Source of the DNA: Trichodesmium erythraeum IMS101
Lineage (GTDB): Bacteria; Cyanobacteriota; Cyanobacteriia; Cyanobacteriales; Microcoleaceae
Reading direction: 5' to 3'
Length of the DNA: 32,000 bases
NCBI RefSeq assembly: GCF_000014265.1
Contig: NC_008312.1
Span: 7,230,001-7,262,000 of the forward strand
Shown here: in pieces, positions 4,320 through 32,000 of the stretch
How the letters are laid out: every line of letters starts with the position of its first letter
Numbering within the stretch: the first letter of the stretch is position 1
The notes under the pieces: generated by a model
The model's database searches: none
Told to the model about the DNA's origin: nothing
Seen by the model: only the letters and a program-made list of their open reading frames with translations
Position numbers and translations under genes: made by a program

Positions 4320-4578
4320 TAGTTTAATATTAAAGTTGCTTGTTAATTATGAAATTAAAAGGAAGGCAGGAAACAGAAAAAAAAGGTGAGAAGGGAGATT
4401 TTTTTGATAACTAATTATTGGGATATCAGATTAGTTAGTATTGTAGAAAACAGGCTGTACAAATGTTTTGTGAACTCCCAACAAGCTAAATTTATCTGAG
4501 TATTTGTTTCATATAGTATGAGCTCAACCGATGGTGAGCAATATCTTAATAAATTAAAGACTTTATTATTAATATTTA

Positions 4579-4611
4579 CTGCAACTTACCTGCAACTTAC
4601 CTGCAACTTGC
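4579..4611 (+). repeat. Three tandem 11-bp units (CTGCAACTTAC, CTGCAACTTAC, CTGCAACTTGC) ending 26 nt upstream of the ycf46-like start codon
   Basis: Read directly from the sequence. Confidence 0.9.
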
Positions 4612-4637
4612 TGTAAATAGCGACTGAAAAAAATATT

Positions 4638-6137
4638 ATGAATTTTCAAGCAGAGTTTGAACTACTATTACGTTCGTGCTATTCAATAATTTATGTCCAG
4701 ACAAGGGAGGAAGAACGAGTAGAAAAGACAATTGCTGAATTAGCGAAAAAACAAGGTAACAGAGCAGTATATATTTGGGATTTTGTAGAAGGATATGAAA
4801 ATAATCCTAATGATATAGGTTGGGGAAAAAGAAATCCTCTTCAAGGTTTAGAACTTGTGGAAAAGTTGCCGGAGTCAGCTCCGGCAATATTTATATTGCG
4901 AGATTTTCAAAGATTTTTGGAGGATATTTCTATTTCAAGGAAGCTGAGGAATTTGGCAAAAAAGTTAAAGTCTCAACCTAAAAATTTGGTAATCTTAGCT
5001 CCTAAAATATCTATTCCAGAGGATTTAAATGAAGTTATTACAATTATAGAATTCCCACTACCAAATAGTCAAGAAATTTCCCAAGAGGTAGAACGTCTTT
5101 TAGTGGCTATGGGTCAATATGTGGAAAAACGTTTATTAGATGAAGTAGTTCGGGCTTCTCTTGGATTATCTCTAGAACGAGTTAGAAGAGTTTTGGCTAG
5201 GGCGATCGCTACTCACGGAAAATTAGAGCTTGATGATGTTGATTTAATTTTAGAAGAAAAACGCCAAACTATTCGTCAAACTCAAATATTGGACTTTTAT
5301 CCTGCTCATGAAAATATTTCTGATATTGGGGGTTTGGATAACCTCAAAGATTGGTTATTGCGACGGGGAGGGGCGTTTTCTGAACGAGCTAGGCAATATG
5401 GTTTGCCTCATCCTAGGGGTTTACTTTTGGTAGGAATACAGGGTACTGGTAAATCTCTTACTGCTAAGGCGATCGCTCATCATTGGCATTTACCTTTATT
5501 ACGTTTGGATGTGGGCCGTTTATTTGGAGGTTTGGTGGGAGAGTCGGAGTCTCGTACCCGACAGATGATTTCTATTGCTGAAGCTTTGGCGCCTTGTGTT
5601 CTCTGGATAGATGAAATTGATAAGGGTTTTGCTGGGTTTAAAAGTCAAGGGGATGCAGGTACTACGAGTCGAGTTTTTGGTACTTTTATTACTTGGTTAG
5701 CTGAAAAAATATCTCCTGTTTTTGTGGTAGCTACTGCTAATAATATTCAATCTTTACCGCCAGAAATATTACGAAAGGGTAGGTTTGATGAAATATTTTT
5801 TGTGGGTTTACCTAATCAGAAGGAAAGAAAATCTATTTTTGAAGTACATTTATCTCGGTTACGACCTTATAATATTAAGAGTTATGATATGGAGCGGCTA
5901 GCTTATGAAACTCCAGATTTTTCTGGTGCAGAAATAGAACAGTCTTTAATAGAAGCTATGCATATTGGGTTTAGTCAAAATCGTGAGTTTACTACTGAGG
6001 ATATTTTGGAGTCTGCTAGTCAAATTATTCCTTTAGCTAGAACTGCTGAAGAACAAATTAAGTTTTTACAAGATTGGGCTGCGGCTGGTAAGGCCCGTCT
6101 TGCTTCTAGATATGATGGCTTTAAAGGTAAGTTTTAA
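4638..6137 (+). CDS. ycf46: Ycf46-like AAA+ ATPase
   Basis: 499 aa. Walker [16 protein letters not shown], Walker [26 protein letters not shown], and an N-terminal non-ATPase domain. Length and motifs match the cyanobacterial/plastid Ycf46 family. Confidence 0.85.
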
Positions 6138-6157
6138 TAGAAAGACACTGAAAAATT

Positions 6158-6601
6158 ATGAATTTGTATGCATTTTTTAAGTTTTTAGTAGGCTTTATTT
6201 TAGCAATACTTTTACTAGCTGGAGCTAGTGCAACAGCAGTTCTCTATTTTGCGGCTAAACTCACAAAAATACCTGAAAAACCAATCTTTGAAAATGAAAA
6301 ACCTGTAGTGGAAAATGTTGCTAAGTCTTCTCAACCAATTTTAGCTACTAGCAATGAAAAATCAGAAAATCAAAATGAGTTAGAGACTGGAACTTATAGA
6401 GCTGTTGTAGTAGAACCTATTGGTTTAATTCTTCGCGATACTCCTAGTAGAAATGCTATTCGTATTGGAGGTATTTCTTATAAGGAGAAAGTTATAGTTC
6501 TTGAAGAGAGTTCTGATAAGAGATGGCAAAAAGTTCGGGTAGATGATGGGAGCGATCGTATAGGTTGGGTTTCAGGAGGTAATACTAAAAAGTTGGATTA
6601 G
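6158..6601 (+). CDS. Membrane-anchored bacterial SH3-domain protein
   Basis: N-terminal TM helix (FLVGFILAILLLAGASATAVLYF) and a C-terminal SH3b-like segment (YRAVVVEPIGLILRDTPS...WQKVRVDD...GWVSGGN). Confidence 0.6.
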   Translation: MNLYAFFKFLVGFILAILLLAGASATAVLYFAAKLTKIPEKPIFENEKPVVENVAKSSQPILATSNEKSENQNELETGTYRAVVVEPIGLILRDTPSRNAIRIGGISYKEKVIVLEESSDKRWQKVRVDDGSDRIGWVSGGNTKKLD

Positions 6602-6888
6602 ATTATTAATAAATTGCTCTATAAATAATGATTTTGAAAGATTTATTTAAGGATTTTAATAATTTTTTCGACAAACTTCTCTTGATATTTTCTCAAAAAA
6701 TTAGATTGAATAATTAATCACTATATTAATCAGATTTTGATATTTATGAGATTAAATAAGGCAGAATATCCCCTGTAAGACTAATTTGTAGCTTTCAGTA
6801 ATGATAATTTATACTCAAGTTACTTTTAGTCATTTCCTAATTTCCATTGCTCAAAAATTTTTTTTACTTTTGGCTTCTGACTTTATTA

Positions 6889-7209
6889 TTAAGAAACCAT
6901 ATCTTCTTGATAAAGTTTATCTTTTTGGTGGATTATTTTGATGATTCCATCATTTTTTAAATCTTCAATATATTCTAACAAATCATTTTTGAACACCTCG
7001 GGATCGACTTCTTCTAATTCTAAAATATCTTCATAAGCTTCTTGAATAGAATCAGATCCTACTAAGGCAAATAACATTTGAGCTGCTACATCATCTAACA
7101 GAAAATCTTGACCTTCCTGTTGAGCATTAACTATAAAAATTCCTCCTTCATCTTCTGCTAGAAAAAAATTATCTGTTAATACTACTTTTTGAGTGAATGA
7201 AATGTTCAC
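6889..7209 (-). CDS. Small acidic protein with a PqqD/RRE-like pattern
   Basis: 106 aa with a GTG start and GAGG 7 nt upstream. The pattern ...GGIFIVNAQQEGQDFLLDDVAAQMLFALVGSDSIQEAYEDILELEEVDPEVFKNDLLEYIEDLKNDGII resembles PqqD-family peptide chaperones (x-LN-xxA-xxI/L-xL-xG-xSxxEIxxxL...D-xxxFlxxLxxxGli). Recognised by eye only. Confidence 0.45.
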   Translation of the reverse strand: MNISFTQKVVLTDNFFLAEDEGGIFIVNAQQEGQDFLLDDVAAQMLFALVGSDSIQEAYEDILELEEVDPEVFKNDLLEYIEDLKNDGIIKIIHQKDKLYQEDMVS

Positions 7210-21238: not shown

Positions 21239-21370
21239 GGTAGTGCACCAGTAAAGTGTGGGATAAGTATAATAGTCGTTCCAACTCCAAGGAGCGATCG
21301 CCAACTCAGCTCCTTGTGCAGCAGTATTTTCTTTGCGACTATGAACCCAAATTCAATTGAAATAGGCGAT

Positions 21371-21484
21371 CGCTAACCTCACTGTTATCTCACCGAGTGT
21401 GCCCAGACCTTACCAAATTTATTCTATCGCTAACCTCACTGTTATCTCACCGAGTGTGCCCAGACCTTACCAAATTTATTCTGT
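21371..21484. repeat. Tandem duplication of a 57-bp unit inside the 3' part of the IS1-like transposase gene
   Basis: CGCTAACCTCACTGTTATCTCACCGAGTGTGCCCAGACCTTACCAAATTTATTCT.. occurs at 21371..21427 and again at 21428..21484, differing only in the last few bases. It creates the artefactual + ORF 21397..21660. Confidence 0.9.
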
Positions 21485-21785
21485 CGGCGGTGCCATCTAC
21501 CTATCTGCTGTCTGAGAATACCGTTAATTCGCTCCTTATGCTGCGTCTGGTATGCCCCAATGATGTGCTTGACTTCAGGAGGGAGCACTCCCTCGTACCC
21601 ACCCCAATCATCAGTATACCAATGTTTACAGTTAGTTTTCCCTTCTGTGTTGGCAATTAATTCTGCGATGAACTGGTCAGTGTGTTTGCCGACACGAGTG
21701 GCCAAAATCAATCCACTTGATGATGCTTGAGTCATCCCAATCCAATAATCACCTTCTGTCAATTCATTCATCTGACAGTGTTTTT

Positions 21786-21792
21786 GTTTTTT
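21786..21792 (-). promoter_or_regulatory. A AAA AAC slippery heptamer at the insA/insB frame junction (IS1-type -1 programmed frameshift site)
   Basis: On the minus strand the frame encoding DQFWSFVQKN reads CAA AAA AAC and stops 5 codons later. The -1 frame reads AAA AAA CAA AAA CAC = KKQKH and continues into the DDE domain (ORF 21442..21807). The same heptamer is used by E. coli IS1. Confidence 0.5.
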
Positions 21793-22334
21793 TGGACGAA
21801 TGACCAAAATTGGTCACTACTGATTTGTGAGGTTTCTATGTTTTGTACATGGGCATTATGAATTATTTGCCCTTTTTGAGAGGCTGCTCTACTCCAAACT
21901 AACTACTGTATTATAAGCCTTGTTAAATGTGGGACTAATTCCTCTCAAGGTAGCTGCCCTCAACATGAGCTTGTAGCAACCTAGGGCATTTTTTCTGGTT
22001 CAATTTGCCGACGATACTATAGAGTGTCAAAAGTAGAGCTTGAAAGTTTGTCCACATTCGGGACAATAGTATGGTTGAGTTCCTTTACTGGTTTTTCCGT
22101 GCTTATGGGGTTTATGATGACCACACAGAGGAAATTCCATAATTATTTCCACAATAATGGGACTATATTCATCAAATCATTCCCACACTTTCTTGATGGA
22201 CTACCAACACATCAACAAAAAACTAAAATTATAAAGATAGGGTATTCCCTACGGAACCCTACGGGAACGACAGTCAAGAAAAAAGATTAATTAACGGAGT
22301 AGTCGGGAAAAAAAAGGTTAAAAGTCAAATAAAA

Positions 22335-25093: not shown

Positions 25094-25954
25094 CTAAACA
25101 TTAATTTCTTGTAATAACCAAAAACCAGCAAATGATTCTGATTCTGGATTTGACTGTACTGCCAGAAAATGAACTTCTTTGGCCTTTGACTTGGCTTCGG
25201 AAAATCTTTTAGCTTCGGCAATAGTAGATGGATTACTCAGATTAGCTAAAATCCAACAATCATTACCTCCAGTATTTAATAGTAACCTAGCTGGAGAGGC
25301 AGGTGAAAATTTGATAAAAGCTAACTCTAATCCTGACATCCAAGCTGCTAAAGCTTGTGCCCTAGATGAATAGATTATTAAACCAGGAATAGCAGATAAT
25401 GGTGCTAGATTCATCATACTGAGGGGAAAAGCTTCCCCAAAATCAATATCCCACTCTGACATTTCCGTAAAGGCCCCTGCTTCTAAACTAACAAATGTCC
25501 ACCTCTCTCCAATTAATGCATCTGGTAAAGGTTGTGGTGCAGAATTCATATATTGACCTGAAGGATTTGTTCCTGGTTGATAACCGGGGTAAGTTGGATA
25601 AACTTCTTCCATTCTTTGTTCTAGCCACTGATTAAGTAAATAAGTGCGACGACTTAAGGCTATCGGTATGGCCAGTTCTCCACAAGCTTTGGTAATCATG
25701 TTATTCATTTGGCGACGGAAGAACCGTATTCTTTCAGGGGGTTCGGGAGCTTGAGCGATCGCTTTTTCAATAGCACTCCGTAGCCAAATGGAGTTGACTT
25801 CTTGGCTATTTGTAAACTCTGAATAACGATATAAAGAGTCTGTAGTGTCATTAATACCTATGGGACTTTGGCAAATTAATAGTTCCCAAAGTTTTTTTTG
25901 TCTCTCATCAAGTATTGGACGACTGTAAAAGTCTAGTTCCCAAATAGTTGTCAT
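25094..25954 (-). CDS. Tab2/ATAB2-family RNA-binding protein (DUF1092)
   Basis: The N-terminal WELDFYSRPILDERQKKLWELLIC and overall length match the cyanobacterial Tab2 homologues. It lies 14 nt upstream of the PmbA-like ORF, so they are probably co-transcribed. Confidence 0.8.
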   Translation of the reverse strand: MTTIWELDFYSRPILDERQKKLWELLICQSPIGINDTTDSLYRYSEFTNSQEVNSIWLRSAIEKAIAQAPEPPERIRFFRRQMNNMITKACGELAIPIALSRRTYLLNQWLEQRMEEVYPTYPGYQPGTNPSGQYMNSAPQPLPDALIGERWTFVSLEAGAFTEMSEWDIDFGEAFPLSMMNLAPLSAIPGLIIYSSRAQALAAWMSGLELAFIKFSPASPARLLLNTGGNDCWILANLSNPSTIAEAKRFSEAKSKAKEVHFLAVQSNPESESFAGFWLLQEINV

Positions 25955-26849
25955 GCCTTAATCTTAGAATATATTATGCTAAATCTAGTTAGTTATTATT
26001 CTCAAACTACCAGAGTTTGTGAAGAGTTTGGAGGGAGAAGATATTTTTACAATGAATTGAAAAAAGAAGTAAGTGAGTAGAGGAGTTTATATCATATTTC
26101 TTTAAATACCCACTTTGGGAAAATTTTAGGGAATTGGGAATTGGGAGCAATTGATGTGAGAAATGTATTTTTATTATGGCTAATTAATGAGACTTAATAT
26201 TACAAAAGTATGTTTTTTACTTTTCTTCTAAAATTTTATCAAAAAATCTTGAATATATTAATTTTTGCATTAATTTCCACACATCTATTATCTTAAAAAT
26301 CAGGCTTTTTTTTGATATTTTATACTAAATAAAAATGATTCCTCTCCCCTTTGTTCAAAACTTATCTCTGTAAGGAGTGGGATAGGGGTCAAGAAGTAAA
26401 CATAAGAATAATTAATATATTACTAGCTCGTAATTATCAAGAAAATTATTTGTACCGTCTTAATTACTTATAATACTTTTGAGGATGGTTAGGTGTAGTT
26501 TAATACTTATCTTTATTCTCTATTCCCTAAATTCTTAAAACCTTTGTACCTGATTAACTCTGCTCTAAACTAATGAAGTAAGTTAGTGTTGAAATTAGTG
26601 TTGAAATTGGTTACTATGTAACAAAATATAAATTTATCTCAAATCAAATCTGTAGAAGAGAATATCTTAAACTCAGTCTACAAATCTTAATAGCTAATTT
26701 TTTTCATGGCTATTTACTTAACTCCAGAACTACTATAAGAATTAAAGCATCATATCAGTATACATTTTTTTGGGGAATTACTATTAGTTTAGTATTTAAG
26801 TAATTTTTCTAGGCTAGATATAATTGTTGATTACAAATAAAATATTCAA

Positions 26850-27710
26850 AGTCAAGTAATGCGACTATAGAAGCTTTTAATTTTAATATTTACGATGATA
26901 CTATAAAATCTCAAATATCTAAATAAGTAATTAATATAAGCACTTAAAAAAAATTGTTTACCTACCTAATTTCATGTGAGATATGTAGTATAAGAGACTC
27001 CCTTTGATAAAATGTGTAATTAATTGTGTCTACCTACTCAGATATTAGATGTAAATTTCAGATTTATTCAACAAGACCCATATCCCAACTATGAAAGATA
27101 AATTAACTCAAACAAATGTCGCAAAAGTTCTAAGGATAGCTTTTCAGAGGGTTCATACTCTCAGAAAAATTTTTTTACCTTAACAAAAAGGCTTGACTAA
27201 CATAACAATAATATTTTCAGACATATATTAATCAGAGAGGAAAAAAGAGTAGCACTCAGTATTCAAAATAGAGTTATATATAGAAATTTATTGAAGGGGT
27301 GACAAGCTAGTTGAAAGTTATATGTAGAGAATGATTTGCCTGTTGAAAGCAAGGAACACTTAAACAGAAAGGGAACGCTTATTGAGAATATATGTGAGTG
27401 TAGTGCGGTTGGACAGCGTTGCATTACCAGCATCATATCACACCTACTGCTTGTATTAAATAAATTTTCAAGTATAATCGCCAACAATATTAGAAAAAAA
27501 GTTACTTTTATTAATTTTAATTAATCCTAAAAAGTCAACAATTGTACAGCTTTTTAATCTTTGACATAGCTTTAATTCTTGTTCAATATTTTGTATATAT
27601 TTTCCCTTACTTTCAGATTTGATTGGTAGCTGAAAGTAATTAGTTAACTTTGAAATTTGTATAGTTTTAGATCGGGAAATTAAATATAATAATAATTGTA
27701 ATCTTATCAA
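26850..27710 (-). pseudogene. Heavily decayed IS4-family transposase relic
   Basis: Minus-strand fragments RLQLLLYLISRSKTIQISKLTNYFQLPIKSESKGKYIQ, DMMLVMQR...ISVPFLFKCSLLSTGKS and VGIWVLLNKS (27061..27100) resemble a cyanobacterial IS4-like transposase family (..LPILFESRRKKIQRFL.., ..IDRTRW..IPVYFELLPKLGNS.., ..GIWLELN..). The blocks sit in the correct order. Numerous stops and frameshifts; the lower boundary is uncertain. Confidence 0.4.
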
Positions 27711-28390
27711 AAGCTCGACTAAACCAAAAAGTGCTTGAGGAGATAATCAAAGAGATTGACTTCAAGATCAATGATGAAATTTAAGCTAAGAAATGAGAAC
27801 AAAATAAAGCCATAAAAATTAATTAAGCTCAAGAAATTTCCCAGGCAAAAACTACAAATTTCCGGTATTATTTAATTTACGTTCCTAACCTAAAAATAAA
27901 ATAGGAAGAAGAAAAACTCTGTGATATTAGTCTGGCTGTGAAAAATATAAATATTTAGTTGAATATAATCAAAATCATTTTAGCAATAGTCAATTATATG
28001 ATTGGTATGTTAACAATATTAGAAATATTTACCGTTCCTCCTAATTGACTGAAATAGGGAAAATGGTGCATTAATGGTGCATTATAATAGTAAGTCATAG
28101 ACCTCTCTAAAAGAAAAATCAAGGTAAAATTATAGTTGCTAATCATAAAGCGAAGTGATAATCTTTAGAGATTTTAATCATTAGAAGAGTTCGGGGTATT
28201 GAAGGTATCTCTGAAGATAGAACCAAAAGATAATCTAGAAAAAATTACTCCTTAAATAGTTTAAGTTAGATGCATAGTATACTATAATTATTTATTTGAT
28301 GACAAAAAATTATAACTAATATATACTTTTAATGACTATTAATGATTAACTAGTATAAATTTGTAGTAAAAGTTACAAAACTTAGTATAA

Positions 28391-28426
28391 GCGATCGCTC
28401 CTCAACTGATGAAGATAAGCGATCGC
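28391..28426. repeat. Direct repeat ATAAGCGATCGCT x2 (two HIP1 octamers 28 bp apart)
   Basis: GCGATCGC at 28391..28398 and 28419..28426, both preceded by ATAA and followed by T. It lies 60-100 nt beyond the 3' end of intron 1. Confidence 0.9.
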
Positions 28427-28538
28427 TAATTTTAAAATTCCTAATTAAATAGGAAGTAATGGGTAAAGTTAATCTACCCTTTCTAATTGCCAGAGAAGTT
28501 AAACTAAGCAATTCTATCACCAGAACTGCTCGTCTTCA

Positions 28539-28572
28539 GAACCGGACGTGAGACTTTCACCTCATCCGGCTC
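28539..28572 (-). ncRNA. Group II intron domain V (catalytic hairpin) of intron 1
   Basis: The minus strand reads GAGCCGGAUGAGGUGAAAGUCUCACGUCCGGUUC. It has the same 34-nt layout as classical domain V (AGC triad, 2-nt bulge, GAAA tetraloop). Confidence 0.9.
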
Positions 28573-28753
28573 CTCAGTGATTAGGCCCTGATTAAAAGAG
28601 TACCTCCACTGTCATAATAAACAGTTTTTACATCGTAGTAATGTCCATAAATTGCAGTTAGCACTTTGTCTTTTTATAGCAGTCATCAGGGAACTTAGGA
28701 AATTCTCACACTCTCAAATTTATTCACAGTAAGAATTTTATTTCTGACTTCTG

Positions 28754-30103
28754 CTATGCCAATTCTATGCTCCAATAAATCAAGTTTGCGTGCCTCAATA
28801 ATCTAACTTGACTGCCATTCTTGTCACTACCAAAAAATTCTCTCTTGTTTTCCCCAATACTTTGCCAATATTTTTGATAAATCCAATGATTATTTTGATT
28901 AGGGTGTCTTCTTTTTGCCCAACCCCAGAGTTTTTGGAATATTAAATTATCCAAATCCTGGAAAATTTTCTTACTCACAAATAATTTCGAGTAATAGTTT
29001 ACCCAACTTTTAACAATAGGGTTGAGTTTTCTGATTAAGACAGCTTGTGATGCAGACTTATATTTATCTATCACCTCAGCAATGTGACAATAATGACTTC
29101 TGATCATCCCCGTACTTGGTTTGATTTTGGTTTTAAAACCCAGCTTACTTTGGTTTTTACTAACCTTATGTTGTCTAATATTAAACCCCAAGAAATCAAA
29201 TCCAGGTTCTTCTTCACCACACCTATATAGTGTGTGATAAATAATAATTTGACTAGGTTTTAATTCCAAACATAAGTCAGATAAGCACTCTCTAATTATA
29301 TATTGGCATTTTTGAACTACCTCAATATTTTTGTGAGCGATCACCAAGTTACCTCCATAACGAATCAAACTTAAACCTTCACATTGATCACTCAGTGCTT
29401 TAGTGTAATGTTTGATTTTTTCTTCTGTATCATGGAAAGCTATATTTGCCAGTAGTGGAGAAATGACTTCCTCCCATTTAAACAAGTCTTTACCATTGAT
29501 CAAACCATCTTTTAACCAAACTCGAATTTGTTTGCGTAAAGTGGGATAGGTATCTAATTTTTTTAATAGTTGTTCATGATCAAAACACTTAAAGCATTGA
29601 CTTATATCAGCTTTCAGTAAATATTTCGGATGAAACTTAACACAATTAACAATTGCTTTCATAGCGTCCTGACATGACTTCGGTAGCTTAAACCCATAAG
29701 AAGAAAGTTCAAACTTTGCTTCCCATTGGTTCTCTAGAGACATCTTGACAAGTATTTGCAAGGGTTGGTCCTTAACAGTACTTATCATTGGTTTAACTTT
29801 GCTATTTAGTTTTAATCTTTTAGCCAAGGCAAAACATTTGTCTGGAGACAATAATTGAACACCACCAACTTCTATTATTTTCTCACCCTGGTTAATTTGA
29901 CTAAACCTACGCACCGCCAACAACCTCCCATACCAAGATTTTATCAGCATTTTTTGGAGCTTACGAACTGCAATAACATCACCACGTTGAGAGGCTCTGT
30001 AGATTCTTTTCTGTAACTTGAAGACCCGACGCTCAACTTTTGTCCAATTAATCTCACGCCACTCTTTCCATTCCCCCGTAGTCTTTAAACTCGTATTAGA
30101 CAT
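28754..30103 (-). CDS. Group II intron-encoded protein with degenerate reverse-transcriptase domain and retained maturase (X) domain
   Basis: 449 aa with no internal stops. RT blocks are recognisable (SYGFKLPKSCQDAM; ADISQCFKCFDHEQLL; ISPLLANIAF) but the active site reads IRYGGNLVI instead of RYADDFVI. The segments corresponding to ..IPKxxGKxRPLGIPT.. and ..GTPQGG.. are missing. The maturase region KLNPIVKSWVNYYS...LWGWAKRRHPN is intact. No HNH/En domain. Confidence 0.85.
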   Translation of the reverse strand: MSNTSLKTTGEWKEWREINWTKVERRVFKLQKRIYRASQRGDVIAVRKLQKMLIKSWYGRLLAVRRFSQINQGEKIIEVGGVQLLSPDKCFALAKRLKLNSKVKPMISTVKDQPLQILVKMSLENQWEAKFELSSYGFKLPKSCQDAMKAIVNCVKFHPKYLLKADISQCFKCFDHEQLLKKLDTYPTLRKQIRVWLKDGLINGKDLFKWEEVISPLLANIAFHDTEEKIKHYTKALSDQCEGLSLIRYGGNLVIAHKNIEVVQKCQYIIRECLSDLCLELKPSQIIIYHTLYRCGEEEPGFDFLGFNIRQHKVSKNQSKLGFKTKIKPSTGMIRSHYCHIAEVIDKYKSASQAVLIRKLNPIVKSWVNYYSKLFVSKKIFQDLDNLIFQKLWGWAKRRHPNQNNHWIYQKYWQSIGENKREFFGSDKNGSQVRLLRHANLIYWSIELA

Positions 30104-31046
30104 TTATATTACTTACTCAAACTCTACATTCCAAATCACCGTGTGTCCGTCTGCATATCCCATTAAATTAACAAAGGGCTTTTGCTTGTGACACAATCCC
30201 TCCCAATCAAACATACGGTTAGCACCTACTTGAATTTACTATCTCAGTTATCAGTTATCAGTACCTCAGTTGATTTTTGTTATTCCCTTAAAATGCTTTA
30301 TTATATAAACATCTTTCTTAAAAAAACTTGGGCAAAATAGACAAGTTATCTTTAAGTCTTTGAGAGACTTTTTCAGGAGAACAAAGTGCATTGAAAAATA
30401 CATTTTTTTGATAAATTAAGTAGTTTTGCAGCAACCTGCCAACCTACTATACTCTTTCTCCCTTTTGCGCTGCTCCCTTTTGCATTGCTCCCCACAATAT
30501 TTTCAGAAGTTTCTGATAACAGATAACTTCAAATAGGAAGCTTAAAAGCTTATTTTTTACTCAAGTATTGCACTAAAAAAAAGAATTATAGCACTTCCCA
30601 GAGTAATTGAGATTCTCGCGCCTCTCAAATATTGTCATAACAAGAATGTACGGGGTAATGGCCAGAAAGCCCCTACTTTTTAATTGTGACTTCTGTGGCT
30701 GAGTGTTAATAAATAGCTATTCAAGAGTTTTTCATGGGTTACTTCGTTCCAAATGACCTTATCTATATACCTTTAGGATGATGCTTTGCGCCGGGTTTAG
30801 GGGAAGTGCTTGTTAGTCGAACCAAATCTCGCTAACTCCCTATCCTTTGCCTTTTGGCTCCAGTGTCACAGCTTATTTCACTGGTTGAACGTAACGACGC
30901 TTCACTCACATCTTCGCACTATAGCTATCCAATGGGTATTTTGCTCGATGGGAACCAACCTAAGCTGTCAGTTGTACCACCTTTTCACCCCGCTTTACGG
31001 ATTGGTTGGGTAGGAGAAAGTACGTCGCCGTATCTCTCCCCCCTAA

Positions 31047-31081
31047 GAACCGGACTTGACAGTTGTCCCATCATCCGGCTC
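31047..31081 (-). ncRNA. Group II intron domain V of intron 2
   Basis: The minus strand reads GAGCCGGAUGAUGGGACAACUGUCAAGUCCGGUUC. It folds as lower stem GAGCCGGAU/GUCCGGUUC, an AA bulge, a 5-bp upper stem and a 5-nt loop. Confidence 0.75.
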
Positions 31082-31362
31082 AAGCCTCTTGCCTTACAGA
31101 ACATTTGCCTGTGTATATATATTTGTGACAACATTTATACAAGTGGACTAGGCCATAAATTTTGTCCATGCCACCGTCTTTCACCCTTATTTTTTTGATG
31201 GGTGTGCAGTTTCTCTCAGTTAAATAAGTGTTCACCACTCATAGGAACATTTCCAGCTCTGAGCTTAGGTAATTTTGTAGTATTTTGAACCTTGACCCGA
31301 TGAGCTTTGTCATATTTTGTATAACGTTATTTCAAATATTTGGTTAAAGAGGGGTTCTCCGG

Positions 31363-32000
31363 CTATGCCGTGCCTTTAATTTTTACATGACGTTGAATGG
31401 GAACTTTTCCTAGTCGGCAGATGGCTATTGTTTCCTTCTTGCCATACCTATTGCTTATGTTTGTTGCGAAAGTCCACTTGTTTCCGTTGACGGTTTTGAA
31501 GTATTTCTTTCGCACCCATTCCTTACCTTTTCCTTTTTGTTTCCCCACTCGCTTCGAGTGTCTTCTTAATGACCATTGCCAGAGTGATTTCCAAATTTCG
31601 TGGTCAACATAGGAAAATATTCGTTGACTTACACCATGTCTGTAGTAGTTCCCCCATCCTCTAATAATTGAATTAAGGTTTGCAATTACTGCTTCTTGTG
31701 TACTGGTCGGGTGTGCTTTGAGCCACCCCCGAATTAGTGTGAGAAATTCCTTAACTTTCTCTTTTTGTGGAACTATGAAGCAGCTACCGTTGAACTGGCG
31801 GACATTGAACCCTAAAAAGTTGAATCCTTGTTCAATATGAACTAAGTTGGTTTTGTCCTTATTAAGTTCTAATCCTCTTTCTGATAGCCATTTTTCAATA
31901 GTGGGGATTATCGCTTTGATGTCTTCCTCACTTCGAGCGGTGATTATGAAGTCATCAGCGTATCGGATAAATCCGTATTTATCTAACTTCTTTTTCTTGG
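31363..32000 (-). CDS. Group II intron reverse transcriptase/maturase, C-terminal part (5' end outside window)
   Basis: My translation of the minus strand is open from 32000 down to the TAG at 31363. It reads ..KKKLDKYGFIRYADDFIITARSEEDI...GFNFLGFNV...IIRGWGNYYRHGV...LWQWSLRRHSKR...IQRHVKIKGTA*. YADD is intact, the X domain is present and there is no En domain. The ORF track lists only its last 61 codons (31363..31548). Confidence 0.9.
   Translation of the reverse strand, partial: KKKKLDKYGFIRYADDFIITARSEEDIKAIIPTIEKWLSERGLELNKDKTNLVHIEQGFNFLGFNVRQFNGSCFIVPQKEKVKEFLTLIRGWLKAHPTSTQEAVIANLNSIIRGWGNYYRHGVSQRIFSYVDHEIWKSLWQWSLRRHSKRVGKQKGKGKEWVRKKYFKTVNGNKWTFATNISNRYGKKETIAICRLGKVPIQRHVKIKGTA

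Follow-up and report, generated by a model that had tools for sequence, protein, structure and literature searches.

The analysed region almost certainly covers the 3′ two-thirds of Tr.e.I7/Tr.e.I8, a published group II twintron, which resides in Tery_4732 of Trichodesmium erythraeum IMS101. The twintron is already known and was described in full by Pfreundt & Hess (Sci Rep 2015, PMC4649490). The window, i.e. the whole stretch of 32,000 nucleotides that was analysed, covers the twintron only from position 32000 downward; genome coordinates minus 7,230,000 give window coordinates. Neither 5′ splice site is contained in the window. The locus beyond its end was retrieved by exact-protein look-up, and the positions of both sites were taken from two sequences (L001 and L002) that continue the window with 99.99-100% identity. 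The published splice sites are 7263622r/7258498r for the host intron and 7263468r/7261005r for the inner intron (PMC4649490). Window positions 28498 and 31005 coincide with the published 3′ splice sites 7258498r and 7261005r, and the host 5′ splice site mapped via L001 equals 7263622r. The first base of the inner intron, placed by the empty site and the GUGCG motif, is 33468 here, which is 1 nt off the published wording ‘after 7263468r’. The spliced 89-aa protein and the lengths of the two IEPs (449 and 489 aa) are the same as in the published account (PMC4649490). Compared to Tr.e.I7/Tr.e.I8, the locus is the same and its biology shows no difference.

A preliminary description of the window had reported two group II introns on the minus strand, arranged head-to-tail and separated by an 85-nt ‘mini-exon’. 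The two introns are confirmed, each by a domain V/VI (28498-28574 and 31005-31083), but they are nested. The nesting had been missed, as neither of the true 5′ splice sites falls inside the window. With these sites outside the window, a nested intron mimics two introns placed head-to-tail, and a GUGCG motif present by chance leads to a false ‘mini-exon’.

The host gene is located on the minus strand and encodes an 89-aa protein that is kept across cyanobacteria; in some species a fusion of this protein to RNase HI is seen. The gene is interrupted in codon 81, behind the first base. Its 5′ exon lies outside the window and is an 80-codon ORF with one additional base, which stops at the GTGCG of L001:1863. 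The last base of this exon, 33622, also outside the window, opens the Ile codon. The host gene (Tery_4732+) continues, in its 3′ exon (28468..28497, minus strand), with TT CTC TGG CAA TTA GAA AGG GTA GAT TAA, i.e. (I)LWQLERVD followed by a stop. Translation of exon 1 joined to window positions 28497..28468 gave ...REGNQ/ILWQLERVD and a stop, exactly the ending of the protein family, whose homologues (1202 matches) end in REGNQ ILWQLERVD. Since the ligated exons restore this conserved C-terminus, everything between them is removed, and taking out the whole unit restores the conserved 89-aa protein. The downstream intron had originally been placed with its end at 28488; it ends at 28498, and the real 3′ exon begins with the surplus 10 nt. 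With corrected boundaries the exons form a continuous conserved ORF. This is the outcome that the preliminary description itself had named as speaking against its proposal of a non-coding spliced host or a landing pad. Its observation that no long ORF follows the second intron was correct. In a terminator/promoter scan 3′ of the 3′ exon, the sole ‘terminator-like’ hairpin was domain VI of the host intron.

The host (outer) intron Tr.e.I7 comprises 2660 nt (window-equivalent positions 33621..33469 plus 31004..28498). Its first 153 nt (33621..33469, minus strand; L001:1863-2015) are outside the window and begin with GTGCGATTCG at L001:1863 (window-equivalent 33621), directly after ...AACCAAA. 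This 5′ end carries the GUGYG motif, which is invariant in all orthologues. The second, larger part (28498..31004, minus strand) contains the remainder of domain I, domains II-IV including the IEP ORF, and domains V and VI, and is collinear with the uninterrupted orthologues of Okeania and L017. The 3′ end was set by Rfam RF00029 together with the published splice site 7258498r. Domains V and VI (28498..28574, minus strand) matched the full-length RF00029 model with 59.9 bits (E = 1.5e-9), and domain V matched RF04357 with 64.9 bits. Domain VI has its bulged branch A 8 nt before the 3′ end, and the last bases of the intron are ...UUUAAC, an AY-type ending (AAC) at the 3′ splice site. The Rfam D1-D4 families gave no match across the whole twintron at E ≤ 1. 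EBS1 of the host intron, UUUGGUU (30820..30826, minus strand), is located in the hairpin GUUAGCGAGAUUUGGUUCGACUAAC and forms 7/7 Watson-Crick pairs with the 5′-exon end AACCAAA. It is the only 7/7 complement of AACCAAA within the first 600 nt of the host intron and is invariant in 7/7 aligned host-intron sequences (the T. erythraeum composite and six orthologues). For EBS2, UUCCC (30954-30950) is a candidate that pairs with GGGAA of the exon in T. erythraeum; it is not claimed here, as covariation with the Gly-codon wobble base is only partial across orthologues. Domain II has been described as atypically large, with 536 nt, and the host and inner introns have been classified as IIB2 and IIB1-like, respectively (PMC4649490). 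In our comparison, domain II contains about 450 nt of extra sequence (30263..30718, minus strand), recognised by BLAST gaps against the Okeania and T. thiebautii-like loci and limited to the T. erythraeum copy. Facing this sequence are 135 nt in L014 and about 110 nt in the T. thiebautii-like loci.

The IEP of the host intron (449 aa; 28754..30103, minus strand) shows the Pfam domains RVT_N, RVT_1 and GIIM (maturase) and thus corresponds to a domain-IV RT/maturase. The catalytic YADD of the RT is replaced by YGGN (29348-29359). In an alignment with the orthologues, every lineage of the host intron carries YGGN, YAGN, YAGD, YGSS or YASN at this position, so that the IEP is RT-dead in every lineage, Okeania included. 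Because the YADD motif is lost, RT activity of this protein is unlikely. We infer that the host IEP probably serves as a maturase only, and that the host intron would be immobile and vertically inherited.

The inner intron Tr.e.I8 comprises 2464 nt (33468..31005, minus strand; L001:2016-4479), and the end of the window cuts through it. It interrupts domain I after the first 153 nt of the host intron and parts the host 5′ end from the host EBS1 and the remaining ribozyme. Its 5′ end is GTGCGATG at L001:2016, again a GUGYG motif. The 3′ part inside the window (31005..32000, minus strand) is exactly the segment that is absent from the empty site of Okeania. Domains V and VI (31005..31083, minus strand) matched RF00029 with 48.9 bits (E = 7e-7), and the intron ends exactly at 31005, as initially placed. 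The inner EBS1, AUGGCU, forms 6/6 pairs with AGCCAU of the host immediately 5′ of the inner intron, which is a unique match. In a T. thiebautii-like copy the inner IBS1 is AGUCAU, and pairing is kept through G-U. The inner IEP (489 aa in full; ORF L001:2652-4121) carries RVT_N, RVT_1 and GIIM (Pfam). Its C-terminal part lies within the window (31363..32000, minus strand) and includes the maturase domain and, also in agreement with the preliminary description, an intact YADD (translation FIRYADDFII). The two IEPs share just 33% identity; as had been stated before, they represent different lineages, and the inner and host introns are unrelated.

The arrangement of the two introns was resolved by orthologous loci. 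Three Okeania loci (L012, L014 and L016) carry the host intron, placed at the same codon, but lack the inner one, and the sequence GCCAT/CAATCC is contiguous across the insertion site; L017 (GCA_022822685.1) is likewise continuous, as GCTAT/CAATCC. In all four, BLAST links the sequence up to L001:2015 straight to L001:4480 and onward, and the orthologues of Okeania and L017 are collinear with L001:1863-2015 plus 4480-6986 without a gap at the junction. Judged from this comparison, the inner intron is enclosed by host domain I and is not in head-to-tail arrangement with the host intron. Since the orthologues read straight through this site, the supposed mini-exon (30920..31004, minus strand) is host-intron sequence, namely the part of domain I immediately 3′ of the inner insertion site. 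An exact search of the genome collection with a 46-nt ‘mini-exon’ sequence gave no match.

The alternative of two complete head-to-tail introns with a real 85-nt non-coding exon, in which the host would be a spliced ncRNA or a landing pad, was suggested by the GTGCG at 30919 and by the stop codons in all three frames of 30920-31004, both of which are indeed present. Also in its favour, independent splicing at these sites would yield ...REGNQ-TIRKAG and a stop on translation. Against it, the flanking exons encode a conserved protein. The GTGCG pentamer (30915..30919, minus strand), proposed as an intron 5′ end (GUGCGAAG), is a chance motif in host domain I: GTGCG occurs 10 times in the window compared to 9.1 expected, and in 4/6 aligned orthologous introns (L011, L015, L016 and L017) the bases corresponding to 30915-30919 are AAGCG or GAGCG. 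The true start is 33621. No EBS1 for GCUAUA, which precedes 30919, was found in host domain I, and the EBS1 downstream of 30919 fits the distant true exon 7/7. Additionally, both the exon1-exon2 junction and a continuous host intron are seen in the published cDNA sequences (PMC4649490). With the 85 nt contiguous with the host intron in the orthologues that lack the inner one, retention of this stretch as an exon after splicing is already refuted by the empty-site comparison, and we give the head-to-tail reading practically no weight.

That both introns are nested in a third, larger outer intron, forming a three-component array, seems hardly conceivable. Three GTGCG motifs do occur between the exons (L001:1863, 2016 and 4565), and the host intron has an unusually long stretch 5′ of its ORF. 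However, an Rfam scan of the whole twintron revealed two domain V/VI cores only between the exons, even at E ≤ 1, and the introns of the Okeania orthologues, although their 5′ and 3′ ends are the same, possess a single IEP and a single domain V/VI. Conservation is lacking for the third GTGCG. An additional intron beginning at 30919 was rejected, as it has no third domain V, no conserved motif and no EBS1 match. The suggestion of a twintron-like array was therefore right in its nesting, but a third outer intron is not found.

On the basis of the sequences, the two-intron twintron would be spliced in two steps. The inner EBS1 (AUGGCU) would recognise host AGCCAU, and the inner intron would excise itself and thereby re-join host domain I. 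The restored host EBS1 (UUUGGUU) would then pair with the exon end AACCAAA, and splicing of the host intron would join ...CAA A to TT CTC..., giving ...REGNQ-ILWQLERVD and a stop. Direct observations cover the boundaries and nesting of the introns, the restoration of the ORF and the EBS1/IBS1 pairings. In vivo, sequential splicing, inner first then outer, and the mature mRNA were reported from RT-PCR and northern blots, and circular inner-intron products were also reported (PMC4649490). A dead relic, in which the small gene is pseudogenised and the introns decay and no longer splice, is thus scarcely credible: it would agree with the shortened IEPs of T. erythraeum (489 vs 596 aa and 449 vs about 520 aa), with the loss of YADD in the host IEP and with a pseudogene-rich genome (PMC4649490), but the exons, splice motifs, EBS1/IBS1 and domain V/VI are kept in the T. 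erythraeum, T. thiebautii-like and Okeania copies, intact maturase domains are present, and mature mRNA as well as splicing intermediates were detected in vivo (PMC4649490).

The closest comparison to the T. erythraeum twintron is a single intron in Okeania spp. and one relative (L011-L019), with the same host gene, insertion codon, intron ends, EBS1 and RT-dead IEP, and a domain I that is 90-97% identical to that of the Trichodesmium host intron. These copies have an empty site and no inner intron, and some carry other small insertions within domain I's basal stem. In 2015 it was stated that the host gene has no intron outside Trichodesmium (PMC4649490). The sole increment of our analysis is that in later Okeania genomes the host intron occurs by itself at the same codon, which corrects this statement. 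It also gives the order of events: the host intron came earlier and the inner intron later. One might go further and see an old, vertically inherited, RT-dead and ‘domesticated’ host intron, fixed before the split of Trichodesmium and Okeania, with an inner intron that invaded the Trichodesmium lineage only and a twintron that might control expression of an RNase HI-associated protein by splicing. Taken as a whole, we regard this as unlikely; its supported part is the phylogenetic distribution, and the regulatory role is speculation.

The T. erythraeum twintron has been claimed as the only bacterial twintron known in a protein-coding gene with demonstrated sequential splicing (PMC4649490). The twintrons of Thermosynechococcus elongatus are likewise cyanobacterial group II introns within group II introns, and their flanking exons do not encode an ORF (PMC4649490). 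The T. erythraeum twintron, in contrast, interrupts a conserved protein-coding gene. With the group II/III twintrons of Euglena chloroplasts it shares the logic that the inner intron needs to be removed before the outer intron folds and splices. The Euglena twintrons are organellar, mostly without ORFs and dependent on trans factors, whereas in the T. erythraeum twintron each component carries its own IEP.

Exactly two group II intron domain V/VI regions were found in the window with Rfam, both on the minus strand and both full-length model matches: 28498-28574 (RF00029, 59.9 bits) and 31005-31083 (48.9 bits). The two minus-strand group II introns of the preliminary description are thus borne out, while the downstream intron end shifts from 28488 to 28498 according to Rfam. 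A complete intron-encoded protein (IEP) ORF of 449 aa (28754-30103) lies between the two regions, and 31363-32000 holds the C-terminal portion of another IEP, which is cut by the window end. The 85 nt at 30920-31004, proposed earlier to be a mini-exon between head-to-tail introns, were confirmed to contain stop codons in all three frames, as was the adjacent GTGCG at 30915-30919.

Two contigs that continue the locus beyond position 32000, L001 and L002, were found by exact-protein look-up with the 449-aa IEP and are 99.99-100% identical to the window over its final 13.2 kb (window position x equals L001 position 3484+(32000-x)). There, the second IEP is present in full with 489 aa (L001:2652-4121). 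Upstream of it, an ORF starting at L001:1622 meets GTGCGATTCG at L001:1863 after 80 codons and one base, and a further GTGCGATG is located at L001:2016. A homology search with the small protein of this ORF gave 1202 relatives across cyanobacteria. Relatives without the interruption have about 92 aa and the C-terminus ...RREGNQ ILWQLERVD; all Trichodesmium and Okeania entries are annotated with 86 aa and the read-through end ...NQSAIRFC. Joining the 5′ exon (ending in ...CAA A) to the sequence directly 3′ of the downstream intron (28497..28468, TT CTC TGG CAA TTA GAA AGG GTA GAT TAA) yields ...REGNQ-ILWQLERVD*. Everything from L001:1863 through window position 28498 must therefore be removed, and the 85 nt are thereby ruled out as an exon.

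Loci from Okeania (L011-L016) and from another relative (L017-L019), retrieved via look-ups of the orthologous small proteins, carry the same gene, split at the identical codon by an intron with a single IEP. In BLAST alignments, the sequence ending at L001:2015 is placed directly beside that beginning at L001:4480 in L012, L014, L016, L017 and L019. The junction GCCAT|CAATCC is literally found in L012, L014 and L016, and L017 reads GCTAT|CAATCC there, a variant that is likewise uninterrupted. These host introns without an inner intron span L012:8237-11150, L014:8237-10515, L016:8237-11457 and L017:8252-10536. A Trichodesmium composite, made of the first 153 nt of the host intron and its part from 31004 downward, aligns collinearly with the uninterrupted introns in a multiple alignment, at 90-97% identity. 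According to this empty-site comparison, the YADD intron is exactly L001:2016-4479, or 33468..31005 in window numbering (2464 nt), and is nested in domain I of the host intron, which comprises 33621..33469 plus 31004..28498 (2660 nt). As judged from these alignments, the supposed mini-exon is domain I of the host intron; the restored conserved ORF and the empty-site orthologues both speak against an exon. The earlier suspicion of a twintron pointed in the right direction, but the head-to-tail interpretation is largely wrong.

The intron 5′ end that had been placed at 30919 was not upheld. The window contains 10 copies of GTGCG compared to 9.1 expected from shuffles, four of six orthologues have AAGCG or GAGCG at the aligned position, and for these boundaries no pairing of exon-binding and intron-binding sites (EBS/IBS) comparable to the following was found in domain I. 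In the host intron, UUUGGUU (30826-30820) is the one motif that can form Watson-Crick pairs with all seven nucleotides (AACCAAA) at the end of the true 5′ exon (7/7), and it is invariant across all orthologues. Likewise, the inner intron carries one 6/6 complement, AUGGCU, to the host AGCCAU directly before its 5′ end. T. thiebautii-like copies have AGUCAU as inner IBS1 with an unchanged EBS1 (AUGGCU), and pairing is kept via G-U. A third intron was excluded: with permissive Rfam settings, no more than the two domain V/VI cores were found over the whole unit.

In the host IEP, the YADD motif (29348-29359, minus strand; same column in L012, L014, L015, L016, L017 and two further aligned loci, L020 and L022) is lost in every lineage, reading YGGN, YAGN, YAGD, YGSS or YASN, and the GIIM maturase domain is retained. 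The inner IEP retains YADD. The altered host motif together with the kept GIIM domain suggests a maturase-only protein and an immobile intron. Together with the Okeania copies that lack the inner intron, these features fit an old and immobile host intron, inherited vertically and invaded later by a mobile intron in the Trichodesmium lineage.

Domain II of the host intron contains about 450 nt (30263-30718, minus strand) found only in T. erythraeum; copies from Okeania and T. thiebautii-like loci have about 110-135 nt here. Part of this extra sequence (143 nt), which may be a small mobile element, matches Okeania L016:11621-11764, downstream of the gene, in reverse orientation with 77% identity. 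Some Okeania copies have an additional 110-180 nt in basal domain I (L011:8275-8384, L012:8276-8382, L016:8266-8446), with tandem CAGAAGG heptamers in L011 and L016. A 62-nt insertion at the same place has been described in Trichodesmium (PMC4649490), which makes this part of domain I a possible hot spot for insertions.

The roughly 2.5 kb (25955-28467) that separate the 3′ exon from the neighbouring downstream gene, which is Tab2-like (25094-25954, minus strand), contain no ORF of at least 100 aa, in line with the high share of non-coding DNA in the Trichodesmium genome. Elsewhere, offset self-hits revealed a tandem duplication of ~57 bp at about 21369-21486. It overlaps an ORF at 21442-21807 (minus strand) and lies in or beside an IS1-family DDE transposase fragment. 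A 46-nt stretch of the twintron locus had no exact match in a one-genome-per-species collection, although the coordinates of the window agree with T. erythraeum IMS101; it may be masked there, or the species may be represented by another genome.

The twintron is a genuine and unusual object, but one that has been described in detail before: Pfreundt & Hess (Sci Rep 2015; PMC4649490) reported it from T. erythraeum IMS101 as Tr.e.I7/Tr.e.I8, >5.4 kb long and located in Tery_4732. That study gives host splice sites after 7263622r and 7258498r, inner splice sites after 7263468r and 7261005r, IEPs of 449 and 489 aa, the missing C-terminus (I)LWQLERVD and a spliced protein of 89 aa, to which our translation is identical. 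By these coordinates, the window corresponds to genome positions 7230001-7262000. RT-PCR with sequencing and northern blots detected mature mRNA, re-joined host intron, the inner-intron-free intermediate and circular inner-intron RNA (PMC4649490). Taken together with our boundary, empty-site and EBS/IBS results, these in vivo data support a mechanism in which the inner intron is excised first, restoring host domain I, and the host intron then splices and restores the ORF. Judged by GUGCG and the empty site, the inner intron begins at 33468 (boundary 33468/33469, L001:2015/2016), whereas 'after 7263468r' implies 33467 by the convention of the other three sites, a discrepancy of 1 nt. The gene was also reported to lack any intron outside Trichodesmium (PMC4649490); contrary to this, later Okeania assemblies and L017 have the host intron at this site with no inner intron. 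No paper on the Okeania copies was found in the literature searched, and they represent a modest, incremental addition to the published twintron.
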